Under the pieces are notes generated by a model. The model had not been told where the DNA came from. It did no database searches and saw only the letters and a program-made list of their open reading frames with translations. A program made the position numbers and the translations under genes. From an uncultured virus (IMG/VR IMGVR_UViG_3300012347_000249) (taxonomy: Duplodnaviria; Heunggongvirae; Uroviricota; Caudoviricetes), in IMG/VR virus record IMGVR_UViG_3300012347_000249: 20,000 nt of DNA; one strand, written 5' to 3'. Below are positions 8,401 to 20,000 of the stretch, one piece after another; the first letter of the stretch is position 1; every line of letters begins with the position of its first letter.

Positions 8401-10794
8401 ATGAGATTTAACGACATTTTATTAGAATATAACCGCGATCAAACAGTTAAGAACTACGGTAACAAAGTATTAGCAGTTGCACTAAAAGATCGTTCAGTTA
8501 TAAACGCACTTATTGGGCGATTCCCAAATGGTGCAATTAAAGCTGGTGCAGATACCCCAGAAGGGCAACAGTTAATTCTAGACTACGTTATGGGGGTTAT
8601 TGAGCAATCAGACCCAACAAAGAACAAAAACTACGCACAAGCTATTACTAGAATGTACACCTTGGGTGGCACAATGCTAGAAGATATTGAGTCTACACTA
8701 AGTCAGTATCTAATCAAATTTGACAAGCTAAAAAACAAAAAGAAGATTCCTGCTCCGCAAAACGACTTTATGCGTTACAAGAGCTTAGATGAGTTCATGA
8801 GCGTAGTTGAGCAACTACCTGATCCAGACAGCGAAATTGAGCAACAAAAAATCGGTGCTGTGCAATTACCACCCGAACGCGACTGGCGTTACGTTTACGG
8901 AAGAATGGATGAGCAAGGTCGTATTACAACTGACTGCTTGATCATTCAACCATTGACTAAATTTGGCGGTTACTGGTGGGCAAAAGAATACCCAAAGAAG
9001 GGTGTTACTAACCGTTGGTGTACAGCGTGGGAAGGCGATAACAGTCGCTTTGATTACTATGCCAAGCAAGGCCCACTATTCATTATTATTCCTGCACAAC
9101 GCACAGACGATAACGAAAAGTATCAATTCCATTTCGAAACTAAACAGTTCATGGACTTCCAAGATCACCAAATTGGTGACGAAGGTATGGACCAATTGGC
9201 TAAACGTTTCCCTGCACTACAACAGGTATTTAGACGTCAGGCAATCCAGTACAACTTACTTGGACTAATGACAGATGACTACAAAGCCGCAGTTCGCAGC
9301 CACTCTAAAGTTGCGTCTAAAGAGCTAGACTCTCTAATTGAGCAATACAAAGAACGTATTGCTGGGTTTGGATTCAGCAGCCTAGGTGACTACGGTATCA
9401 CTATCCCTGAAGACACTCAACGTGAATTAATGCCACTAATTGAAAACTACCTTGAGCAGTGTAGAGCTACGTTAGTTAGCAAGGACGGATTCTGGCGCCA
9501 GGTAGTGAATAAACTAGGCACAGAGCGAAACGAAGACAAACTAGAAGTTATCTTAAACACAGACTCATCACTAAAAGCATTAGTTGAGCAAAGTGAAGCA
9601 GGAAAAGCAGTTGCAGAAATAGCATCCTTGCCAAACATCAAACAGCGTATTGATGCAAGTCACTTGCAAGATTTATTATTGCGTGACCCATTGTTCCGTT
9701 TTACCATGCGCCAAGTTCCTAAGTTGTACAAATCCTTCTTAGATGAATTGAGTAGCACACAAGTTAACGAAGCATATAGCATGGATGACTTGCGTAAAGA
9801 TGCAGCAGCCGGAGTAAAAGCGTCAATTGATAAACAAAGTGATGCACGTATTGCAGCACAACGAAACCCACAGAGCTTTATGAGCAAAGTCGGCGATAAG
9901 ATCGTAGGCGGCGTTACTGGAGCAGTTAAGGGAGCCTACAATGGTTTCCGTGGCGAGCTAGAAGAAAACAACAACGAAATGTTTAGCGACGAAGGATTCT
10001 TTGTTGTTATTGCAAACGAAAACGATGGCGCCTTTGTTGGTATGGTAACCAAAGATGGCGGTAAGTGGAGAGAAACTGATGTAGAAGGTAATGCACCAAG
10101 CAACTGGGGCGGCAACTACATGAGCTACTTAACACCAGACGATGTAATGCAACATATTCGCAATGACTACCGTAGACATAGCGAAGTTAAAGGCCCGTTC
10201 TTTGATGAGCAAGAAGCTCTTGAGTATGCACGAAGCCATTATGACTTAGGTGGTGACGACGATTACTTTGATGACGAAGACGAAGACACCATGGAAGAAG
10301 GCAAAATGAAAGACATTGATATTGGTCGCCAAGACCGTGAATCAATGTCACCACAACAATTCCGTGGACAGTACAAGCAAAGCAAAGACGACTGGACTGC
10401 CGATAACAGCGATGTACTGGATGGCCCAGCTGTTGCTCCTACACCACGTAAGAAGGCCTCTAACACTGTCGAAGCATACATGGAAGTGTATAACAAACGT
10501 GATCAACGTGAGTTTAAGAGCATGCCTTTCCCAAGCGAGAAAGCAGCACAACGTTGGGCAGATTCGCACAACGCTATTATCCATAGCATTGTTCCACTAA
10601 AAGGGGTAGCAGAGCAAACTGAAGAGCCAGAAGACGATGTAGATCATGATGATGGTAAAATTGCAGGACGCTACCACCCAGACGAGTTTGACGAGTTAGT
10701 TAATCGCGTTAAAGCAAAAGCCAAAGAACAAGAACGTATTCACGGTCCTGTTGATATTGCAAAACTTGCAGCACGTCTACGCGGTATCCAGTAA
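8401..10794 (+). CDS. Modular putative head-packaged polyprotein; N-terminal half paralogous to 6976..8370
   Basis: Leader MRFNDILLE. Motifs SDPTKNKNYAQ, NRWCTAW, RFDYYAKQGPLFIIIP, EKYQFHF..QFMD. Later junctions VNE|AY, LEE|NNNEMFS, VAE|QT. Confidence 0.8.
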   Translation: MRFNDILLEYNRDQTVKNYGNKVLAVALKDRSVINALIGRFPNGAIKAGADTPEGQQLILDYVMGVIEQSDPTKNKNYAQAITRMYTLGGTMLEDIESTLSQYLIKFDKLKNKKKIPAPQNDFMRYKSLDEFMSVVEQLPDPDSEIEQQKIGAVQLPPERDWRYVYGRMDEQGRITTDCLIIQPLTKFGGYWWAKEYPKKGVTNRWCTAWEGDNSRFDYYAKQGPLFIIIPAQRTDDNEKYQFHFETKQFMDFQDHQIGDEGMDQLAKRFPALQQVFRRQAIQYNLLGLMTDDYKAAVRSHSKVASKELDSLIEQYKERIAGFGFSSLGDYGITIPEDTQRELMPLIENYLEQCRATLVSKDGFWRQVVNKLGTERNEDKLEVILNTDSSLKALVEQSEAGKAVAEIASLPNIKQRIDASHLQDLLLRDPLFRFTMRQVPKLYKSFLDELSSTQVNEAYSMDDLRKDAAAGVKASIDKQSDARIAAQRNPQSFMSKVGDKIVGGVTGAVKGAYNGFRGELEENNNEMFSDEGFFVVIANENDGAFVGMVTKDGGKWRETDVEGNAPSNWGGNYMSYLTPDDVMQHIRNDYRRHSEVKGPFFDEQEALEYARSHYDLGGDDDYFDDEDEDTMEEGKMKDIDIGRQDRESMSPQQFRGQYKQSKDDWTADNSDVLDGPAVAPTPRKKASNTVEAYMEVYNKRDQREFKSMPFPSEKAAQRWADSHNAIIHSIVPLKGVAEQTEEPEDDVDHDDGKIAGRYHPDEFDELVNRVKAKAKEQERIHGPVDIAKLAARLRGIQ

Positions 10795-11870
10795 TGACTG
10801 ACAAGACTAAGATCCTGGACATGATCAAAAAGTTCCTTCCTATTGCTGTGAAGGAACTTGATCTACAATCATTGCCAGCAATGAAACCAGTTACTAGTCT
10901 TGCACATGGCGAACATCCTAGCTTTGGTCGCTTTGTTCCTGAAACAAACACCATTGAGTTTGCCATTGAAGATAGACACCCAATTGATATTCTGCGTACA
11001 CTTGCACATGAACTAGTGCATTGCAAACAACGCGAAGATAATCGTTTAAAGCATGACAGCGGTGAAACTGGCAGCAACGAAGAAAATGAAGCCAATGCCC
11101 GTGCAGGTATTATTATGCGTAACTTTGATGATGCGTATCCTGGGTACTTTGCCGAAGAGCCGGTTAATCTAGATGAAGGAATAGACTATGCTAAAGGGAA
11201 CATTGATTATCATAGTACTCTTAATCCTATCGCCTGGGAAGGTGACCAGTTACGAACCGAAGTCAGACTCAAGCTACTTGAAATTGCGAAAGTATTTGTA
11301 GACTACTTAGAGATTCCCGATTTTGAAATTGCAGACATTGTGCTAACTGGGTCATTGGCCAACTACAACTACACTAAGTTCAGCGACTTTGATTTACACG
11401 TAGTAACAGACTACAGCAACTTGCAGTGCGACGATATTGCAGAAGCATTGTATCAAGCCAAGAAACAAATTTGGAATGATCGTCATGACATTACCATTCA
11501 CGGGTACGATGTTGAGTTGTATGTTGAGGATATCAATCAGCCACCTGTTAGTGCAGGTACATACAGCATCCTAGATCAAACTTGGATCAACACACCGGAA
11601 CAAAAGACCCCAACCATTGACCGTAATGCAGTTAATGCAAAGGTAACAGATCTAGTTAAGCAAATTGATCACGCAATTGCCGCAGCTGATGAACCTAGTG
11701 ACATTAGACGTGTAACTGCTAAGTTACGTAAGATGCGACAAAGTGGATTAGACTCAGCAGGTGAGTTCAGTGTAGAAAATTTAGCATTTAAAGTTCTACG
11801 TAACTTGGGCTACATAAGTAAATTAAGTAAAGCATTTTATCACAAGCAAGACAGTCAGTTAAGTTTGTGA
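10794..11870 (+). CDS. Fusion of an N-terminal HEXXH zincin-like metallopeptidase domain and a C-terminal DNA-polymerase-beta-superfamily nucleotidyltransferase
   Basis: LRTLAHELVH (11007-11021) with downstream ENEANA; junction NLDE|GI at 11169-11177; NTase signature LTGS-x10-DFDLH plus a third acidic strand DVELYVED. Confidence 0.8.
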   Translation: MTDKTKILDMIKKFLPIAVKELDLQSLPAMKPVTSLAHGEHPSFGRFVPETNTIEFAIEDRHPIDILRTLAHELVHCKQREDNRLKHDSGETGSNEENEANARAGIIMRNFDDAYPGYFAEEPVNLDEGIDYAKGNIDYHSTLNPIAWEGDQLRTEVRLKLLEIAKVFVDYLEIPDFEIADIVLTGSLANYNYTKFSDFDLHVVTDYSNLQCDDIAEALYQAKKQIWNDRHDITIHGYDVELYVEDINQPPVSAGTYSILDQTWINTPEQKTPTIDRNAVNAKVTDLVKQIDHAIAAADEPSDIRRVTAKLRKMRQSGLDSAGEFSVENLAFKVLRNLGYISKLSKAFYHKQDSQLSL

Positions 11871-11876
11871 TCCCGA

Positions 11877-11990
11877 ACCTACCTTAGGTCCGTTGATGTC
11901 AACGGTTAGGAGCTCTGCTCCAGGCGTCAAATAGGCGGCTGCTGCCTAGTACATGAGTTACGCCAGATTCTGTACAAAGTGAGCTTTTTT
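11877..11990 (+). ncRNA. Candidate structured RNA: five hairpins, two potential pseudoknots and a 3' U-tract; family not recognised
   Basis: Stems ACCTA/TAGGT, CCGTTG/CAACGG, GGAGC/GCTCC, TAGGC/GCCTA, GTACA/TGTAC. Loop ACGCC (11960-64) is complementary to GGCGT (11923-27). Loop GCTGCT (11938-43) is complementary to AGT-G-AGC (11978-84). Confidence 0.6.
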
Positions 11991-11996
11991 ACGGCC

Positions 11997-12012
11997 GTTG
12001 TAAAAATACAAC
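11997..12012. promoter_or_regulatory. Palindromic operator-like site GTTGTA-AAAA-TACAAC
   Basis: Perfect 6-bp inverted repeat with a 4-nt spacer just upstream of a promoter; second copy at 12389-12404. Confidence 0.55.
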
Positions 12013-12060
12013 AAAATATTTCTATCTTTTCGGTAAAGTTCTTAAAAATGGTGTTATACT
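12013..12060 (+). promoter_or_regulatory. Early/middle-type promoter: AAAATATTT, GGTAAA, 17-nt spacer, extended -10 TGtTATACT
   Basis: GGTAAA 12032-37 and TATACT 12055-60; same layout recurs at 12410-12458. Confidence 0.6.
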
Positions 12061-12106
12061 CTAGTTATTGCAGCACAGTGCTGTAATCAACAACCAGGAG
12101 TAAACA

Positions 12107-12379
12107 ATGCCCAAAGCAACTGCAAACTTTACAGCAGACGATCTTAAACCCCTTGAAACCGCAGAATCCAAGGAATCTGCACAAACTTTGCTTCACGCTA
12201 TTGTGGACAAAGCAGCGGGCAGCAAGTACGCCATTAAGCCTGAAAAAGTAGCTGCATTGCATCGCAACATTAATAATGCACGTAGCAAAGCAGAAGTCGT
12301 TGCAATTGGCTGGAACATGTTGCTTGCTGGTGAAAAGCTGTCTAGCGTGTCTAGCACATACCAACGCAAGTACGCATAA
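12107..12379 (+). CDS. Hypothetical protein (90 aa)
   Basis: AGGAG Shine-Dalgarno at 12096-12100, own promoter, 5'-UTR hairpin at 12067-12087. Confidence 0.8.
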   Translation: MPKATANFTADDLKPLETAESKESAQTLLHAIVDKAAGSKYAIKPEKVAALHRNINNARSKAEVVAIGWNMLLAGEKLSSVSSTYQRKYA

Positions 12380-12413
12380 TTTTAGGGTGTTGTAGAAATA
12401 CAACACTTTAAAA
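12380..12413. promoter_or_regulatory. Extended palindrome GTGTTGTA-GAAA-TACAACAC; operator and/or terminator hairpin
   Basis: 8-bp perfect inverted repeat, extendable to 15 bp with two G-U pairs; GAAA loop; begins right after the stop of 12107..12379. Confidence 0.55.
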
Positions 12414-12864: not shown

Positions 12865-13965
12865 ATGGCTGTAACTGAGCATCGTTCCGTAACCCCATCT
12901 GACGCACGTAGCCGTGTGTTGCGAGCATTCAAGAACAAACGTCCCGTGTTCTTGTGGGGCCCTCCTGGTATTGGTAAGTCTGAGCTGATCCAAGGCTTGA
13001 CTGAAGAACTGGGTGGCGCTTGCATTGACTTGCGTTTGGGCCAATGTGAACCCACTGACTTGCGTGGCATTCCCTACTTCGATCGCGACAAAGGCGTTAT
13101 GAACTGGGCTCCCCCAATCGAACTGCCAAGCGAAGAATTCGCTAAACAATATCCAATCGTGGTGTTGTTCTTGGACGAGATGAACTCCGCTGCTCCTGCT
13201 GTGCAGGGTGCTGCTTACCAGCTGATCTTGAACCGCCAAGTTGGTACCTACAAGTTGCCCGACAACGTGGTGATGGTTGCTGCGGGTAACCGTGAAAGCG
13301 ACAAGGGTGTGAGCTATCGCATGCCTAGCCCACTGGCAAACCGTTTCGTCCACTTGGAAGTGCGTCAAGACTTTGACAGCTGGTTCAACTGGGCTGTGAG
13401 CAAGAACATCCACAAAGACGTTGTTGGTTACATTTCGTTTGCCAAGCAAGATTTGTTTGACTTTGATCCAAAGTCTGCAAGCCGTAGCTTTGCTACTCCT
13501 CGTACATGGACCTTCGTGTCTGACTTCTTGTACGACGAAGACGCCACTGACGCAGAGTTGACTGACTTGATCGCAGGTACAGTTGGCGAAGGTCTTGCTG
13601 TGAAGTTCATGGCACACCGTAAGGTTGCTGGTTCTATGCCACGTCCCGAAGATGTGTTGGCCGGCAAGGTCAAAGAGTTGAAAGTGAAAGAAGTGTCTGC
13701 TATGTACTCGCTGACTATCAGCTTGTGCTACGAACTGCAAGAGCAATACAAAAAGCTCGGCAAGGACAAGATGGCAGACTGGCATGCTCAAGCTGATAAC
13801 TTCCTGAAGTTCATGATGGATAACTTCTCCACAGAACTGGTTGTTATGGGTGCTCGTGTTGCATTGACTACCTACAACCTGCCCATGGTTCCTGGTAAGA
13901 TGCCTAACTTCGACGAGTTCCACAAACGCTTCGGTAAGTACATTATCGCAGCTAGCGGCAAGTAA
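12865..13965 (+). CDS. MoxR-like AAA+ ATPase
   Basis: Walker A GPPGIGKS, Walker B LFLDEMN, sensor-1 AAGNR, arginine finger LANRF; AAGGAG Shine-Dalgarno. Confidence 0.92.
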   Translation: MAVTEHRSVTPSDARSRVLRAFKNKRPVFLWGPPGIGKSELIQGLTEELGGACIDLRLGQCEPTDLRGIPYFDRDKGVMNWAPPIELPSEEFAKQYPIVVLFLDEMNSAAPAVQGAAYQLILNRQVGTYKLPDNVVMVAAGNRESDKGVSYRMPSPLANRFVHLEVRQDFDSWFNWAVSKNIHKDVVGYISFAKQDLFDFDPKSASRSFATPRTWTFVSDFLYDEDATDAELTDLIAGTVGEGLAVKFMAHRKVAGSMPRPEDVLAGKVKELKVKEVSAMYSLTISLCYELQEQYKKLGKDKMADWHAQADNFLKFMMDNFSTELVVMGARVALTTYNLPMVPGKMPNFDEFHKRFGKYIIAASGK

Positions 13966-14804: not shown

Positions 14805-16058
14805 ATGTCTGCTGTCGCTGAAAAGAAAAAGCCCGTTGAAACAGATCCAAAGATCGACAACGCTGCTAAAGAAAAACTCATTACTGCACGTATCGGTCTG
14901 CTGCTCAAGGCACCATTCTTCGGTAATCTTGCAACCCGCATGAAGTTGGTTAATGCCGACGAGTGGTGCTCTACTGCTGCCACTGACGGTCGCACGTTCT
15001 ATTACAACAGTGTGTTCGTTAACAACATGCCGCTCAAGCAAGTTGAGTTCTTGGTAGGTCACGAAGTGCTCCACGCTGTTTACGACCACATGGGTCGTAC
15101 TGGCGCACGTGATCGCAAAATCATGAACATTGCTGCTGACTTTTGCGTTAACAGCGATTTGATTGATCAACGTGTAGGCGAGAAGATTACTGTTGTTCCT
15201 ATGCTGTACGATCCAAAGTACAAAGGCATGGCAATGGAAGAGATCTACGACGACTTGATGAACAACGCAAACAAGGTTGACATCAACAAGTTGGCTCAAC
15301 AAGTTTTGGACCAGCACTTGGATGGCGAAGGTGACGGCGATGGTGACGGTGATCAAGACGGCAATGGTCCTCCTCGTCTCAGCAAAGCAGATCGCGATGC
15401 TATCAAGGACGAGATCAAAGAAGCTATGTTGCAGGCTGCACAAGCATGTGGCGCAGGTAACTTGCCCGCAGGTGTTAAGCGTCTTGTTAAGGACTTGACC
15501 GAGCCAATGATTGGTTGGAAAGAGCTGTTGGAACAACAAATCCAAAGCACTATCAAGAGCGACTATACGTTTGCTCGCCCAGGTCGTAAGAGCTGGCACA
15601 TGGATGCAATCTTGCCAGGTACCAAGCCGGGTGAGACTATTGACGTGTTCATTGGCATCGACACTTCGGGTTCTATTACCGACAATGACTTGAAGATCTT
15701 CTTGAGCGAGATCAAAGGCATTATGGAATCGTACGATGAGTACAAGATCCATGTGGTTGGTTGGGATACCCAAGTTCACAACAGTGGTATCTTCACTAGC
15801 GAAAACCTTGCAGATATTGCAGAGTTCCATCCAGGTGGCGGCGGCGGCACTGACCCAATGTGCGTGTGGGAACACTTGATCCAAGAAGGCATTGAGCCTA
15901 AGAAATTGATCATGTTTACTGACTACTGCTTCTTTGGTTGGGATCCTAATAAGGTCGAAAGCTACTGCGACACTGTGTGGATTATCAAAGGTAATCCAAG
16001 TGCAGAGCCAGAGTTTGGTATCTGGGCTCACTACGAGGACGTGAAAAAGGGTAAGTAA
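14805..16058 (+). CDS. DUF2201-like protein: N-terminal HEXXH metallopeptidase domain plus C-terminal vWA domain; likely MoxR partner
   Basis: TAATDG, GHEVLH, NIAADFCVN, G/D-rich linker, MIDAS motif IDTSGS, GGGGTD, MFTD. Confidence 0.9.
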   Translation: MSAVAEKKKPVETDPKIDNAAKEKLITARIGLLLKAPFFGNLATRMKLVNADEWCSTAATDGRTFYYNSVFVNNMPLKQVEFLVGHEVLHAVYDHMGRTGARDRKIMNIAADFCVNSDLIDQRVGEKITVVPMLYDPKYKGMAMEEIYDDLMNNANKVDINKLAQQVLDQHLDGEGDGDGDGDQDGNGPPRLSKADRDAIKDEIKEAMLQAAQACGAGNLPAGVKRLVKDLTEPMIGWKELLEQQIQSTIKSDYTFARPGRKSWHMDAILPGTKPGETIDVFIGIDTSGSITDNDLKIFLSEIKGIMESYDEYKIHVVGWDTQVHNSGIFTSENLADIAEFHPGGGGGTDPMCVWEHLIQEGIEPKKLIMFTDYCFFGWDPNKVESYCDTVWIIKGNPSAEPEFGIWAHYEDVKKGK

Positions 16059-16722: not shown

Positions 16723-17415
16723 ATGTTTGCAACAGGCGTATATCGCGATGCACCCGCAATTAATGCGGCAATGGGCCGTGTGTACTTTTACATGATGACT
16801 GCTGTGCTTAACAGCATGTTGGTCAGCTATGTAATTGGCACCACCCCCGCACTGGCCCACTTTTTCCTAACCGGAATTATGCACTGGGTGGTAATCTTTG
16901 CACCATTGGTGGCAATTTTCTTCATCACTCCTGCTCTTGCAGCAGATCCACCTGCACCAGTTGCAGTAGGCATTCTACATGCCTTTGCGGCACTAATGGG
17001 ACTAAGTCTTAGTGTGATCTTTGTTGCATACGCAATGACCAGTATCTTTACAGCGTTCATGGGCGCCGCAGTGCTGTTTGGTACTATGAGCTTCTACGGT
17101 TACTTTACTAAGAAAGATCTTAGTGGAATGGGTAGCTTGCTGTTTGTTGGATTGATTGCAATCATCATTGCCAGTATTATCAATATCTTTATTGGTAGCA
17201 CAGTAATGCAAATGGTTATCAGTGCAATTGCAATCTTGATCTTCTTGGGCTTTACTGCGTATGACACACAGCAAATCCGTGAATCACTTAGTGTAGACAA
17301 TGAAGGCACAGCAGCACTTGAAGTAATCGGAGCATTGAGCTTGTACCTTGACTTCATTAACTTGTTTGTTAACTTGCTGCAACTTATTGGCGTAGCACCG
17401 GGCAACGACGACTAA
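16723..17415 (+). CDS. Bax inhibitor-1/YccA (TMBIM) family membrane protein
   Basis: About seven hydrophobic segments; signatures YGYFTKKDLS, TAYDTQQI, GALSLYLDFINLF; AAGGAG Shine-Dalgarno. Confidence 0.92.
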   Translation: MFATGVYRDAPAINAAMGRVYFYMMTAVLNSMLVSYVIGTTPALAHFFLTGIMHWVVIFAPLVAIFFITPALAADPPAPVAVGILHAFAALMGLSLSVIFVAYAMTSIFTAFMGAAVLFGTMSFYGYFTKKDLSGMGSLLFVGLIAIIIASIINIFIGSTVMQMVISAIAILIFLGFTAYDTQQIRESLSVDNEGTAALEVIGALSLYLDFINLFVNLLQLIGVAPGNDD

Positions 17416-18686: not shown

Positions 18687-18978
18687 TTTAAGTAGTAAAA
18701 AACAGTGGGAGTCGATATTGAGAGATATCGACAAGCCAGATGTACCAATCGAAATGATGGAACGTGTGGTAGTTAGTTTAACAGACGGCACCACTGTTAT
18801 TATCGACATCAAAGCTATGCTAGCCGAAGGTGCAGATCCGGACTTCCTAAAAATACATTTAGACGAACGCCTGGACAGCCTGGATCACATTATCGAAGAC
18901 GTTGACTTCTACGTTAACGTTGACGAAGTACGTAAGACCGTACAACCCTTAACTGACAGTATTTTAAAAAATCTATGA
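18631..18978 (+). CDS. Hypothetical protein (up to 115 aa; start uncertain)
   Basis: Fills the gap to DHFR with an ATGA overlap; 56-nt overlap with the upstream gene if 18631 is the start. Confidence 0.7.
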   Translation: MAQQQEPKKPKRPKSKRLNLSSKKQWESILRDIDKPDVPIEMMERVVVSLTDGTTVIIDIKAMLAEGADPDFLKIHLDERLDSLDHIIEDVDFYVNVDEVRKTVQPLTDSILKNL

Positions 18979-19475
18979 TAAATGCCCTTTTTGCCGTTGA
19001 TAGGAACGGCGGAATGGGGTTTAATGGCACCATGCCATGGCCTCACAACTCCGCTGACCTTAAAAACTTTAAAGAACTAACTGATGGACATGTAGTCGTA
19101 ATGGGTCGCAAAACCTGGGACGACAAGAACATGCCCAAGCCCCTTAAAGGGCGAACCACATATGTTGCAACAAATGCAACATTCCTACAGCATACGTTGA
19201 CCATCAAGGGCAACATAAAGGAAGAAATCCTTGCATTAGAAAAGAAGCACCCCGATAAAACTATTTGGGTAGTTGGCGGTCCTGAGTTATTGGCACAATG
19301 CGATGGTGTGTTTGATCGTTTATACTTGACGCACTATAAGGGATCGTTTAAAATAGATACTAGATTAAACTTAAAAACGTTTTTATCTGGTTGGAGTCAG
19401 AAGTCCGCAACGGCAGATCCAACAACTAATTTCACAACGGTAATTTATGAGAGCTTATTTAAACGCCTTAAATGA
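18975..19475 (+). CDS. frd: Dihydrofolate reductase
   Basis: AVDRNGGMG..MPW....DL.NFK..T....VVMGRKTW, PL.GR, WVVGG motifs. Confidence 0.95.
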   Translation: MINALFAVDRNGGMGFNGTMPWPHNSADLKNFKELTDGHVVVMGRKTWDDKNMPKPLKGRTTYVATNATFLQHTLTIKGNIKEEILALEKKHPDKTIWVVGGPELLAQCDGVFDRLYLTHYKGSFKIDTRLNLKTFLSGWSQKSATADPTTNFTTVIYESLFKRLK

Positions 19476-20000
19476 AGTCCTGCAAAAGGGCACAGTAAAA
19501 GAAGACCGCACAGGCACTGGCACAATCAGCTATTTCGGCATGCAACAGCGTTACGATCTCAGTGAGACTTTCCCTGCCGTAACTACAAAGAAGCTAGCAT
19601 GGAAAAGTGTAGTCTCAGAGTTGCTGTGGTTCATTGAAGGATCAGGAGACGAAAAGCGGTTGCGAGAGATATTACATGGTAGCGCCGAGTCTAGCAAGAC
19701 AACTATCTGGACTGCCAATGCCACAGCACCTTACTGGCAACCCAAAGCACAGTTCGAAGGCGATCTAGGAAGAGTTTATGGTGTACAGTGGAGACACTGG
19801 CGCCATTATAAAGAGCAAAAGGAAATGGGTCCTGCCCACTTAGGCGGTGTGCGAGTAGCCGCTGATAGACATGAGGTTGATCAACTATTAGAACTAATCA
19901 ACGGCATTAAAGCAGACCCACACGGACGACGACATATATTATCTGCATGGAACCCAGGCGAATTAGAAGCTATGGCCCTGCCCCCGTGTCATACCTTTGC
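19447..20000 (+). CDS. thyA: Thymidylate synthase ThyA, 3'-truncated by the window edge; absent from the ORF track
   Basis: Manual translation: MRAYLNAL..EDRTGTGT..FPAVTTKKL..ELLWFIEG..DLGRVYGVQWR..GRRHILSAWNP..MALPPCH. Confidence 0.97.
   Translation, partial: MRAYLNALNEVLQKGTVKEDRTGTGTISYFGMQQRYDLSETFPAVTTKKLAWKSVVSELLWFIEGSGDEKRLREILHGSAESSKTTIWTANATAPYWQPKAQFEGDLGRVYGVQWRHWRHYKEQKEMGPAHLGGVRVAADRHEVDQLLELINGIKADPHGRRHILSAWNPGELEAMALPPCHTF

Follow-up and report, generated by a model that had tools for sequence, protein, structure and literature searches.

What is encoded by a GC-rich interval of little more than 100 nucleotides that separates two same-strand genes in a phage genome? The window analysed here, 20,000 nucleotides from an uncultured virus of the class Caudoviricetes (IMG/VR record IMGVR_UViG_3300012347_000249), contains such an interval at 11877-11990, for which an earlier note, made from the sequence alone, had proposed a novel structured RNA with five stems and two pseudoknots (PK1 and PK2). 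As that note stated, this segment is richer in GC than its surroundings (0.51-0.53 for the element against 0.31-0.38 for the flanks), and the stems and both loop complementarities are found where it had placed them. The features of the locus are as follows.

10794-11870, plus strand: upstream gene; the N-terminal ~130 aa are a HExxH peptidase-like domain that recurs beside the RNA
11876-11984, plus strand: the complete RNA element of some 109 nt, which belongs to a phage-only family
11877-11889, plus strand: local P1 hairpin of the earlier note, weak; appears in the minimum free energy (MFE) fold, 78% of cells paired
11879-11894, plus strand: family-wide motif M1, made up of CUACCUUAGG, U and CCGUU in that order; one mismatch to its antisense target, E. 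coli 23S rRNA 1917-1933
11890-11905, plus strand: P2 hairpin, mirror of 23S helix 69; 93% paired, one of six pairs changed on both sides in the window class
11909-11921, plus strand: P3, variable hairpin; four of four counted pairs change on both sides, 100% paired
11921-11929, plus strand: CAGGCGUCA junction, a 9-mer antisense to 23S 1827-1835; 11923-11927 (GGCGT) is the 5' strand of PK1
11932-11948, plus strand: P4 hairpin with invariant loop GGCUGCU; the two outer pairs covary
11938-11943, plus strand: 5' strand of PK2, GCUGCU, in the P4 loop
11949-11975, plus strand: P5, two-part hairpin with apical loop ACGCCA; nine of ten pairs change on both sides
11958-11965, plus strand: UUACGCCA, an 8-mer antisense to 23S 1971-1978; 11960-11964 (ACGCC) is the 3' strand of PK1
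11978-11984, plus strand: 3' strand of PK2, AGUGAGC, with G11981 bulged
11985-11990, plus strand: T6 tract 3' of the element, seen in the window
12107-12379, plus strand: 90-aa ORF with no assigned function, downstream of the element

The 5' limit of the element, 11876, is the point at which a metatranscriptome contig starts directly after adapter sequence, and the 3' limit, 11984, is the last pair of PK2; in the window, the upstream stop codon lies 6 nt before the element. In the window, the sequence of the element has an MFE of -40.9 kcal/mol (z-score -1.89; 6 of 200 shuffled sequences fold equally well) in a structure that lacks P4, and the minus strand of the element has a z-score of -0.80. 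Taken alone, this sequence folds only slightly better than its shuffled versions and is unexceptional, so the case for a real element rests on comparison with its relatives and not on this fold.

Family membership and distribution

The element belongs to a large, phage-specific family of single-copy pseudoknotted small RNAs of about 80-120 nt. Environmental phage contigs, 4-355 kb in length, have yielded no fewer than 164 distinct members. Six exact-pattern scans of IMG/VR returned 6, 67, at least 118, 69, at least 120 and at least 120 loci, with one match per row returned; the 67-locus scan includes 2 false matches and the 69-locus scan 13, and among 80 loci taken from the scan with at least 118 there were 49 true members. 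One covariance model (R2) matches 100 of 100 family loci, and another (R1) finds one copy in each of five jumbo-phage records of 240-355 kb, three of which are close relatives, and scores near-identical copies in related jumbo-phage records at 120.8-125.5 bits. The antitoxin RNA of type III toxin-antitoxin systems, built of tandem short pseudoknot repeats beside an endoRNase toxin, was considered and rejected, as there is one copy per record (five of five) and one match per locus in every scan.

Pattern searches of 185,579 bacterial and archaeal species genomes gave 29 matches, only one of which is a true member; an LSU rRNA model found no 23S rRNA in the single bacterial MAG that carries it. 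Across the element the nearest record (G001) shows 100% identity, a related-locus search with the upstream protein retrieved only the near-identical record of the window, and blastn of 11700-12200 against 50,697 phage records gave no match. Members come from freshwater, wetland and marine viromes, and from small phages as well as jumbo phages of up to 355 kb.

The novelty suggested for this RNA is borne out by Rfam 15. When 11500-12400 of the window was searched (E <= 10), just two matches came up, each at chance level: SNORD41 (E 1.1), which lies upstream of the element, and HOLDH (E 7.8), with 10.1 bits compared with 319.4. A search with ten diverse members (E <= 1) gave a single sub-threshold match, to Atu_C8 (24.2 bits against 50). 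No Rfam family scored at or above its gathering threshold, including hammerhead, twister, twister-sister, pistol, hatchet, HDV-like and glmS ribozymes, phage pRNA and riboswitches, and ARAGORN called no tRNA or tmRNA in the window or in 40 family loci. Literature searches returned, among the matches listed, nothing on this family for structured phage RNA motifs and nothing relevant for a full-text query with the P4 motif. Fremin, Bhatt and Kyrpides (2023, PMC10690425) predicted 10,006 candidate structured RNAs in IMG/VR, and their abstract names tRNA-like, terminator and gene-upstream classes, with no mention in that abstract of complementarity to rRNA. The family may be among these candidates, which, as far as the abstract describes them, it resembles in being a covarying intergenic phage RNA without assigned function from the same data source; its motifs are absent from the six supplementary files of that study that were searched.

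Secondary structure and pseudoknots

We compared 43 distinct sequences of the class to which the window belongs with 500 shuffles. In this class 91.0% of the cells are paired, compared with 82.2% after shuffling. Its covariation score of 0.270 was reached by none of the 500 shuffles, which gave 0.123; the family-wide score was likewise reached by 0 of 500. With hundreds of homologues at hand, the check that the earlier note had proposed can be read directly: the predicted helices P2, P3, P4 and P5 covary, and these four of its five stems stand, whereas its local P1 is weak, the outer pair being unpaired in 28 of the 43 sequences. In the majority class, the motif sits instead in a junction closed by a long-range P1 helix. 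Across the family, all five P2 pairs change on both sides, and the pair flanking P4 occurs as GC (37), AU (28), GU (10) and CG (6); within the window class, two of the five P4 pairs show double-sided changes. The innermost fifth pair of P3, scored as a separate helix, is paired in only 20%, and P3 is missing from some members, such as L009. Paired cells include 175 G.U against 36 A.C combinations, an excess which indicates that the RNA is read from the plus strand.

PK2, which joins the P4 loop to the 3' tail, is paired in 100% of the 43 sequences and is supported by three independent changes of the compensatory kind. A U-A pair is replaced by C-G in two sequences (L231 and L255) and a G.U pair by A-U in a third (L266), and the tail of L323 is a perfect complement of the P4 loop with no bulge. 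All five pairs of PK1 (GGCGU with ACGCC) are invariant, so that covariation neither supports nor refutes it. The predicted topology is an H-type pseudoknot of the P4 loop and the 3' tail, with P5 inserted in its third loop, preceded by a 5' domain that presents CCUUAGGACCG beside P2, after which the near-invariant P4 follows. In some subclasses CCUUA pairs internally with a downstream UAAGG. A parallel is offered by the pseudoknotted 3' end of the turnip yellow mosaic virus tRNA-like structure, where, as here, the 3' terminal strand pairs with a hairpin loop; as a result of this pairing P4 and PK2 can stack on each other, and the 3' end would leave the resulting helix of some 10-11 bp. Unlike the viral structure, the element has no CCA, T-loop or anticodon mimic, and is not called by ARAGORN.

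This is indeed more structure than a terminator needs. A role as terminator or as a 3' exonuclease block for the upstream operon would draw on the T6 tract directly 3' of the pseudoknot, on the position of the element 6 nt after the upstream stop codon, and on the possible capacity of a 3' pseudoknot to hinder 3' exonucleases; we consider it very unlikely. The T6 tract is present in the window as claimed, but it is a minority trait, with a T run of at least four within the first 8 nt 3' of the element in only 30 of 164 distinct members, and a terminator consensus scan of the window called no site at the element; on these two counts an intrinsic terminator was rejected. One copy per genome of 240-355 kb is also unlike a generic signal, and the transcript evidence (see below) has the RNA continuing downstream. 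Blocking of 3' exonucleases on the upstream mRNA may occur but is not favoured.

Complementarity of the exposed segments to 23S rRNA

The most telling property of the family, missed in the earlier note, is that its invariant exposed bases are antisense to 23S rRNA. With the E. coli rrnH operon as the reference, the family-wide CCUUAGGACCG and the P5 loops match E. coli 23S rRNA 1917-1937 and 1968-1978 exactly in antisense; in other words, the conserved bases predicted to be left unpaired by the secondary structure are an exact antisense of the H69-H71 junction in domain IV. In the window these matches cover 1924-1933 (10 nt, complementary to 11879-11888 within M1), 1827-1835 (9 nt, carried by 21 members) and, for the P5 loop, 1971-1978 (8 nt only); the mismatch in the motif falls opposite U1923. 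The motif of other members has 12-17 nt of exact antisense.

Among 147 members, the longest antisense match to 23S rRNA has a median of 12 nt and a maximum of 17, and 12 nt or more are reached by 89 of 147 members; the corresponding figures are 30 of 2940 for shuffles and 0 of 147 for the sense orientation. The members being related, such counts are not independent events. The heptamer CCUU[AG]GG is found in 99 of 106 distinct sequences of a sample drawn without requiring the motif. Among 103 sequences of the same sample, at least 10 nt are antisense to 23S 1900-1940 in 86 members, at least 8 nt in P5 are antisense to 1925-1985 in 87, both matches occur in 74, and 16 have no P5 match of 8 nt or more. 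The P5 loops fall into classes complementary to 1929-1937 (9 nt, abutting the target of the motif) or 1968-1977 (10 nt), and a UCGUGC loop class has a 6-nt complement only. The clustered antisense cover in the window amounts to 27 nt, which 6 of 3000 dinucleotide shuffles reach; for six representatives, the observed cover is reached by 24, 29, 71, 123, 185 and 493 of 1000 shuffles, so that support of this kind for single members is moderate, and for most representatives weak.

According to the Rfam LSU consensus, from which the limits of H69 were also taken, the targeted rRNA bases are highly conserved and lie mostly outside helices, with 1917-1924 forming the 3' strand of H69. All 84 matches to the 23S target found in sampled genomes (66 of 151, from one phylum) show the E. 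coli sequence without change across 20 nt. The idea that the variable base of the motif tracks rRNA position 1923 was set aside, as all 84 carry T in that one sampled phylum. The computed duplex of 11877-11907 with 23S 1905-1934, in which P2 faces H69, has an energy of -32.9 kcal/mol, and in a local scan against 23S 1800-2000, computed without shuffle comparison, three window segments gave -32.9, -19.0 and -18.2 kcal/mol. In the window class the 5' half of the element is collinear with antisense 23S 1827-1933, P3 standing in for a much shortened H68; by this shared order PK1 would mirror rRNA helix 67. The LSU consensus pairs CGCC (1830-1833) with GGCG (1972-1975). This order, shared with antisense rDNA, could be a relic of capture and not a sign of function.

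Two further matches were evaluated. A P4 10-mer is antisense to 16S rRNA 519-528 in 143 of 147 members, and is not significant by itself, since 331 of 2940 shuffles also reach 10 nt against 16S. A match of the tail to 23S 1098-1105 (8 nt) is within chance.

The arrangement of conserved exposed segments, complementary to a defined target, is that of the loop-presenting antisense RNAs, of which CopA/CopT of plasmid R1 and RNA I/RNA II of ColE1 are examples. As in these systems, the molecule is small, highly structured and probably stable, short conserved complementary segments are placed in loops and junctions, and recognition appears to be multi-segment. In contrast to them, the candidate target is rRNA and not an mRNA or primer, the RNA is encoded in trans by a phage, and its body is an H-type pseudoknot with an inserted hairpin. 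Bipartite guide recognition is known from group II introns, where EBS1 and EBS2 pair with IBS1 and IBS2, and from snoRNA guides acting on rRNA. In the majority class of the present family the two exposed segments cover a contiguous stretch of 18 nt, rRNA 1920-1937, and, as with EBS2 and EBS1, it is the segment lying upstream that would pair with the 5' portion of this stretch; snoRNAs, too, pair with conserved rRNA. Unlike either, the element is about 100 nt long and has no intron domains, C/D or H/ACA boxes, or Rfam match. We know of no phage or bacterial small RNA that targets rRNA by base pairing, and neither a literature search for phage RNAs complementary to 23S rRNA nor the wider one on structured phage RNA motifs found one among the matches listed.

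Our best explanation, held tentatively and at somewhat less than even confidence, is that the element is a stable phage RNA that base-pairs with domain IV of the host 23S rRNA. Since invariant exposed bases complement a conserved 23S stretch, the phage may act on the host ribosome through an RNA. The molecule would be made or processed as a stable species that begins at the base of the first helix and has the 3' end locked in the pseudoknot, and its exposed segments would pair with host 23S rRNA. The H69-H71 junction may be buried in the mature 50S subunit; the most plausible target would be domain IV of nascent or free 50S, and pairing would disturb or divert the maturation of 50S, or the joining of the subunits, in the course of infection. 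If functional, such pairing would be a new viral route to take over or disable translation, acting on what the invariant bases mirror, the base of helix 69 at the subunit interface, among the most conserved parts of the ribosome. Even if the complementarity is a relic, there remains a large, well-defined orphan RNA family with a supported pseudoknot, and perhaps with a protein partner and an exactly positioned 5' end as well (see below).

The same matches could be read at the level of DNA: the interval might be an attachment core, the target of a homing endonuclease, or a piece of rDNA that was captured and has no RNA function. Identity to the rrl gene, in opposite orientation, reaches 17 bp at most, and the rDNA stretch in question is a known homing-endonuclease site. 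Compensatory changes that keep the helices and the G.U to A.C ratio of 175 to 36 speak against such a feature, which we regard as extremely unlikely; besides, the rDNA-like pieces are split among loops and not contiguous, and the near-absence of the family from bacterial genomes gives no sign of integration.

Transcription, neighbouring genes and possible partners

Same-strand genes flank the element at every locus; the upstream one mostly stops 3-25 nt before it (in a few cases up to about 60 nt), and a downstream start follows 6-122 nt after it; an ATG is found within 30 nt downstream in 105 of 164 members. A moderately conserved AAG|AAC precedes the first helix. The metatranscriptome contig mentioned above, from a close relative, is 1863 nt long, has a depth of 58.7, is identical to the window through 11929, and continues downstream. 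Only one contig, from one run, carries this transcript signal, and a contig can establish neither that it represents a single molecule nor what chemistry an end has. Reads of runs X15-X17 cover flanking stretches only.

A start of RNA at 11876, the close spacing to the upstream stop and the downstream start, and the AAG|AAC signature would also fit a cis-acting intercistronic element that sets where the downstream transcript begins, whether it cleaves itself at G11875|A11876 or is cut by a host RNase, and then serves as a compact structured leader stabilising or tuning the mRNA; the rRNA match would be ancestral or incidental. Invariant junction and loop bases combined with a pseudoknot are typical of small self-cleaving ribozymes, and the HDV-like, hatchet and glmS ribozymes cut at their own 5' edge. 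The element is like these in size, pseudoknotting, invariant junction bases and phage or metagenome habitat, and the one contig end suggests that its RNA, too, may begin precisely where the first helix starts. HDV itself is a nested double pseudoknot whose P1 begins at the cleavage site and whose 3' terminal strand forms P2 by pairing with the segment directly following P1. In the element, unlike HDV, the 3' tail pairs with the P4 loop and not with a segment after P1, and cleavage is hypothetical; an HDV-like ribozyme was rejected on the grounds of this tail pairing and of the lack of an HDV-type match in Rfam, where no ribozyme family matched at all. A sigma-70-like promoter within 40 nt 3' of the element, in 27 of 164 members, means that there the element is not a leader. 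A general cis role is likewise hard to reconcile with a single copy per genome, given the many intercistronic junctions of a phage, and with downstream genes that are unrelated between loci, and it leaves unexplained why the P5-loop classes are each antisense to neighbouring 23S segments. With support from one contig in one run, we judge the cis element unlikely, if still worth serious consideration. A riboswitch was rejected in view of the unrelated downstream genes and the intervening promoter in some members; a packaging-related RNA, one of the roles floated in the earlier note, is improbable given contigs of 4-355 kb and unrelated neighbouring genes.

The RNA might alternatively be the cofactor, guide, activator or inhibitor of the HExxH protein, in a two-part phage module that could be combined with rRNA pairing. 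At 20 of 38 distinct loci a domain of about 130 aa with this signature is encoded on the same strand within 2.5 kb, either next to the RNA on its upstream or downstream side or separated from it by one gene. Each of the five jumbo records (240-355 kb) has a single strong match (E 1e-52 to 1e-55), no more than about 1.6 kb from the RNA. Its predicted fold (pLDDT 85.3) is weakly similar to IrrE/PprI, Wss1/SPRTN and minigluzincins, with a best Foldseek E of 2.9e-3 (all above 1e-3) and TM-scores of up to 0.56. No such gene occurs within 2.5 kb at the other 18 of 38 loci, three of the five jumbo records are closely related, all Pfam matches of the domain are below threshold, and a PDB sequence search found none. 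The linkage may also be explained by shared ancestry of an early-gene region, as other neighbours recur too (an 88-aa regulator at 17 of 38 loci and a 146-aa protein at 13). Such a partnership seems rather doubtful to us.

Several proteins of the IrrE/PprI, Wss1/SPRTN and minigluzincin group are proteases switched on by nucleic acid. A more elaborate combination, and a long shot, would be an RNA-guided, ribosome-directed module of RNA and HExxH minigluzincin: the RNA would dock on H69-H71 of 23S rRNA, perhaps with its P4 loop on the 530 loop of 16S rRNA, and the peptidase, recruited or activated, would cut a ribosomal protein or translation factor, so that host translation is reprogrammed or shut down.

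The earlier note had placed the element at a boundary of late and early genes, a label that Pfam and PHROG annotation of the ORFs does not back. In the window, the genes downstream of the element are those of an AAA ATPase, DUF2201, Bax1-I, DHFR and ThyA. The 90-aa ORF downstream has no PHROG or Pfam match, and BLASTP found no similarity between it and one example (L090, 88 aa) of the recurrent downstream regulator family. Between positions 3 and 11870, Pfam (E <= 0.001) has no match for five of eight ORFs and only weak ones, to Prefoldin_2, Acetyltransf_1 and NTP_transf_2, for the remaining three, while a PHROG scan of six upstream ORFs gave families without a function or a weak metalloprotease.

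Structure and distribution of the RNA family

The RNA occupies positions 11876-11984 of the window (about 109 nt, plus strand), between ORFs 10794-11870 (+) and 12107-12379 (+). All stems and complementarities that the earlier note had proposed were found where it had placed them, and the family-wide 5' motif overlaps the first two:

11877-11889 (+), helix P1
11890-11905 (+), helix P2
11909-11921 (+), helix P3
11932-11948 (+), helix P4
11949-11975 (+), helix P5
11923-11927 with 11960-11964 (+), pseudoknot PK1, GGCGU with ACGCC in the P5 loop
11938-11943 with 11978-11984 (+), pseudoknot PK2, P4 loop with 3' tail
11879-11894 (+), 5' motif with the core CCUU[AG]GG

The element is also richer in GC than its flanks, as had been noticed (0.51-0.53 vs 0.31-0.38). 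Its minimum free energy is -40.9 kcal/mol (z -1.89), which 6 of 200 shuffles equal, and z is -0.80 for the minus strand; the optimal structure contains P1, P2, P3 and P5, and P4 is missing from it. The single-sequence fold thus barely beats chance, and the case depends on the comparison of relatives.

An exact 28-mer of the element retrieved six IMG/VR loci, on contigs of up to 354 kb, in which the element is much more conserved than its flanks and P4 and P5 carry compensatory changes. Looser patterns gave 67 loci (65 true members), further patterns at least 118 (49 true members among 80 fetched), another pattern 69 loci (54 distinct sequences, of which 13 are false), and two additional patterns at least 120 loci each, with one match per row in every scan. 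The family set comprises 164 distinct members. Of two covariance models, R2 matches 100 of 100 loci at E <= 1e-3, the window's class included, and R1 finds exactly one copy in each of five jumbo-phage records of 240-355 kb, three of which are at least 92% complete. A pattern scan of 185,579 bacterial and archaeal species genomes produced 29 matches, of which just one is a true member; it sits in a Haliscomenobacter MAG, on a contig of 183 kb, and has a sigma-70-like promoter and an 86-aa regulator after it, so that a phage may have been binned with this MAG. The window's stretch occurs in freshwater, wetland and seawater metagenomes.

The claim of novelty held: the window has two chance-level rows in Rfam 15 at E <= 10, and ten diverse relatives have one sub-threshold row at E <= 1 and otherwise no match. 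With ARAGORN, neither the window nor 40 related loci yielded a tRNA or tmRNA, and similar DNA was not found among 50,697 phage records. A description of the family was found neither in Rfam nor among the papers searched; the large supplements of PMC10690425, which lie outside the search, may list it as an unnamed candidate.

Across the 43 distinct sequences of the window's class, the proportion of paired cells is 91.0%, vs 82.2% in shuffles, and the covariation score is 0.270 vs 0.123; none of 500 shuffles reaches the observed value, and all slid controls are far lower. Both sides have changed in 4 of 4 pairs of P3, 9 of 10 of P5, 2 of 5 of P4 and 1 of 6 of P2; the innermost pair of P3, its fifth, was scored as a helix of its own and is paired to only 20%. 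For the whole family (88 distinct sequences) the score rises to 0.337 vs 0.112, again reached by 0 of 500 shuffles, and the pair flanking P4 is GC in 37, AU in 28, GU in 10 and CG in 6. G.U pairs outnumber A.C pairs by 175 to 36, from which it follows that the RNA is the plus strand; that the element is instead an rDNA-like feature at the DNA level, for which its likeness to 23S rRNA (see below) might speak, is very improbable.

Covariation backs one of the two pseudoknots. Three changes speak for PK2, the pairing of loop GCUGCU with tail AGU(G)AGC: in loci L231 and L255 the loop reads GCCGCU and the tail AGUGGGC, in L266 the loop reads GCUACU (G.U to A-U), and in L323 an unbulged tail is perfectly complementary to the loop. 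PK1 is invariant, and covariation is therefore silent on it. The local P1 hairpin is present, but is weak, with 78% pairing. Members of the majority class carry the motif in a junction that a long-range helix closes, and in several subclasses CCUUA pairs with a downstream UAAGG. Together, P4 and PK2 make up an H-type pseudoknot whose third loop houses P5; the tail is preceded by an A-rich stretch. We conclude that the element is a real, novel, single-copy pseudoknotted RNA on the plus strand, and that its family is large and confined to phages.

Complementarity to 23S rRNA

At the level of sequence, the conserved bases that are unpaired in the secondary structure are antisense to domain IV of 23S rRNA (E. 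coli numbering; the rrnH operon served as reference). The window has exact antisense matches to 23S 1924-1933 (10 nt), 1827-1835 (9 nt) and 1971-1978 (8 nt), its own motif having one mismatch; other classes reach 14 nt, e.g. CCUUAGGACCGUUA with 1917-1930, and the maximum is 17 nt. Among 147 members the median longest match is 12 nt, and 89 have at least 12 nt, a length that 30 of 2940 shuffles reach and that none of the 147 reaches when read in sense. Shuffle tests of single members are moderate (window, 6 of 3000; six other representatives, 24 to 493 per 1000). In a motif-unbiased sample, drawn on P4 plus tail only, 99 of 106 distinct sequences contain CCUU[AG]GG (of the other seven, two are truncated where the contig ends and four are one base off), stretches of at least 10 nt are antisense to 23S 1900-1940 in 86 of 103, and in 87 of 103 at least 8 nt of P5 are antisense to 1925-1985.

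The strongest point, in our view, is that the P5 apical loops, which differ between classes and sit at one and the same structural position, each match, in antisense, one of several neighbouring segments of the rRNA. For the majority loop, UUCGCUACC, the match is to 23S 1929-1937, directly abutting the target of the motif, so that loop and motif jointly cover 1920-1937; the loop UACGCCAUUC matches 1968-1977. In the Rfam LSU consensus the targeted bases are highly conserved and largely outside helices, CGCC 1830-33 pairs with GGCG 1972-75, and H69 is a hairpin just 5' of the target; PK1 of the window is thus an antisense mirror of helix 67 and P2 a mirror of H69, and the order of the 5' half (11879-11929) is that of the 23S antisense from 1933 to 1827, where P3 stands for a shortened H68. 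The duplex energies computed are -32.9 kcal/mol for 11877-11907 with 23S 1905-1934, -18.2 for the junction and -19.0 for P5. All 84 target matches, from 66 of 151 sampled genomes and one phylum, are identical to E. coli over 20 nt. As these matches suggest, the RNA may well act by base-pairing with the 23S rRNA of the host, the likeliest target being nascent rRNA or that of free 50S; we hold this reading tentatively.

The near-invariant P4 bases GCGGCUGCUG (11935-11944) are, in 143 of 147 members, exactly antisense to E. coli 16S 519-528 (530 loop). This match of 10 nt lies within the range of chance, being equalled by 331 of 2940 shuffles (about 11%). PK2 occupies this loop.

Genomic context and RNA end

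The element always falls between two genes that share its strand; the upstream stop mostly precedes it by 3-25 nt (by up to about 60 nt at a few loci), and a downstream start follows it by 6-122 nt. These genes vary from locus to locus (nucleases, kinases, Hsp20, radical SAM); a small regulator accounts for 7 of 34 downstream genes. The U6 tract noted after the element is present in the window, but is not a family feature, since only 30 of 164 members have a run of at least four T within 8 nt of the tail. A sigma-70-like promoter lies within 40 nt in 27, an ATG within 30 nt in 105, and A follows GAGC in 129 of the 164. A terminator or 3' block, to which the window's U tract would be suited, is accordingly improbable.

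Four RNA-type runs were compared with 11600-12400, three of which cover flanks only. A riverine metatranscriptome contig (1863 nt, depth 58.7) begins with 24 adapter letters, followed by 11876-11929 without a difference, and continues with a relative's version of P4 and onward. A fragment end, most simply an RNA 5' end, thus lies precisely at the foot of the first helix (G11875|A11876), with the RNA running downstream; coming from one contig, it is only a hint. This end would suit a leader or an element defining a 5' end, possibly self-cleaving, which we consider possible but doubtful beside the matches to 23S rRNA. Throughout the family, a moderately conserved AAG|AAC precedes the first helix (window 11870-11876; aligned positions in L269-L388), and the sole RNA end observed falls between its G and A.

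All-against-all comparison of ORFs within 2.5 kb of the RNA revealed, in 20 of 38 distinct loci, a same-strand HExxH domain of about 130 aa that is minigluzincin-like and has the motifs RHPxDILRTLAHELVHxKQ and SGxTGSPxENEAN. The domain lies directly upstream, directly downstream or one gene off, fused to various other domains. Listed with it here is a second recurrent neighbour, a small regulator:

10794-11200 (+), window, HExxH domain, N-terminal part of ORF 10794-11870, directly upstream of the RNA
L115:2037-2438, L095:2562-2969, L087:2563-3843 and others, HExxH domain at other family loci
L084:2566-2889, L090:2606-2869, L132:2625-2885, L142:1844-2104 and others, 87-108-aa regulator downstream of the RNA

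In each of the five jumbo records, the only strong match to the domain is within about 1.6 kb of the RNA. Pfam gives sub-threshold metallopeptidase matches only (DUF6782 in 6 and M78 in 5 of 12 members), and some metagenome sources name homologues ImmA/M78 peptidase; a confident predicted model (pLDDT 85.3) shows weak resemblance (best E 2.9e-3) to IrrE/PprI, minigluzincins and Wss1/SPRTN. This association of domain and RNA may have a function, or it may stem from a common early-gene region. That the RNA is a partner of the HExxH protein, which is compatible with pairing to 23S rRNA, seems rather unlikely.

The 87-108-aa protein (phrog_12534 / phrog_639, 'transcriptional regulator') occurs in 17 of 38 loci, and in most cases a conserved 96-aa ORF comes next (12 of 38); a 146-aa phrog_3636 DNA-binding protein lies upstream of the RNA in 13 of 38.

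The description of the site as a 'late/early boundary' found no footing: the matches of the ORFs between 3 and 11870 are uninformative, and the genes downstream encode AAA ATPase, DUF2201, Bax1-I, DHFR and ThyA. Other loci have a clear TTGACA-type promoter directly 3' of the element; in the window, an extended -10-like TGTTATACT was read by eye at 12052-12060, about 45 nt ahead of ORF 12107, where a consensus scan called no promoter. A 15-pair terminator-like hairpin (12380-12413) immediately follows the 90-aa ORF 12107-12379. A MoxR-like AAA ATPase (12865-13965) is paired with a DUF2201 metallopeptidase/VWA protein (14805-16058), which PHROGs labels 'HNH endonuclease' without Pfam support. 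The phage also encodes a Bax1-I family membrane protein (16723-17415), dihydrofolate reductase (18975-19475) and thymidylate synthase (19447-19998), the last two ORFs sharing a 29-nt overlap.
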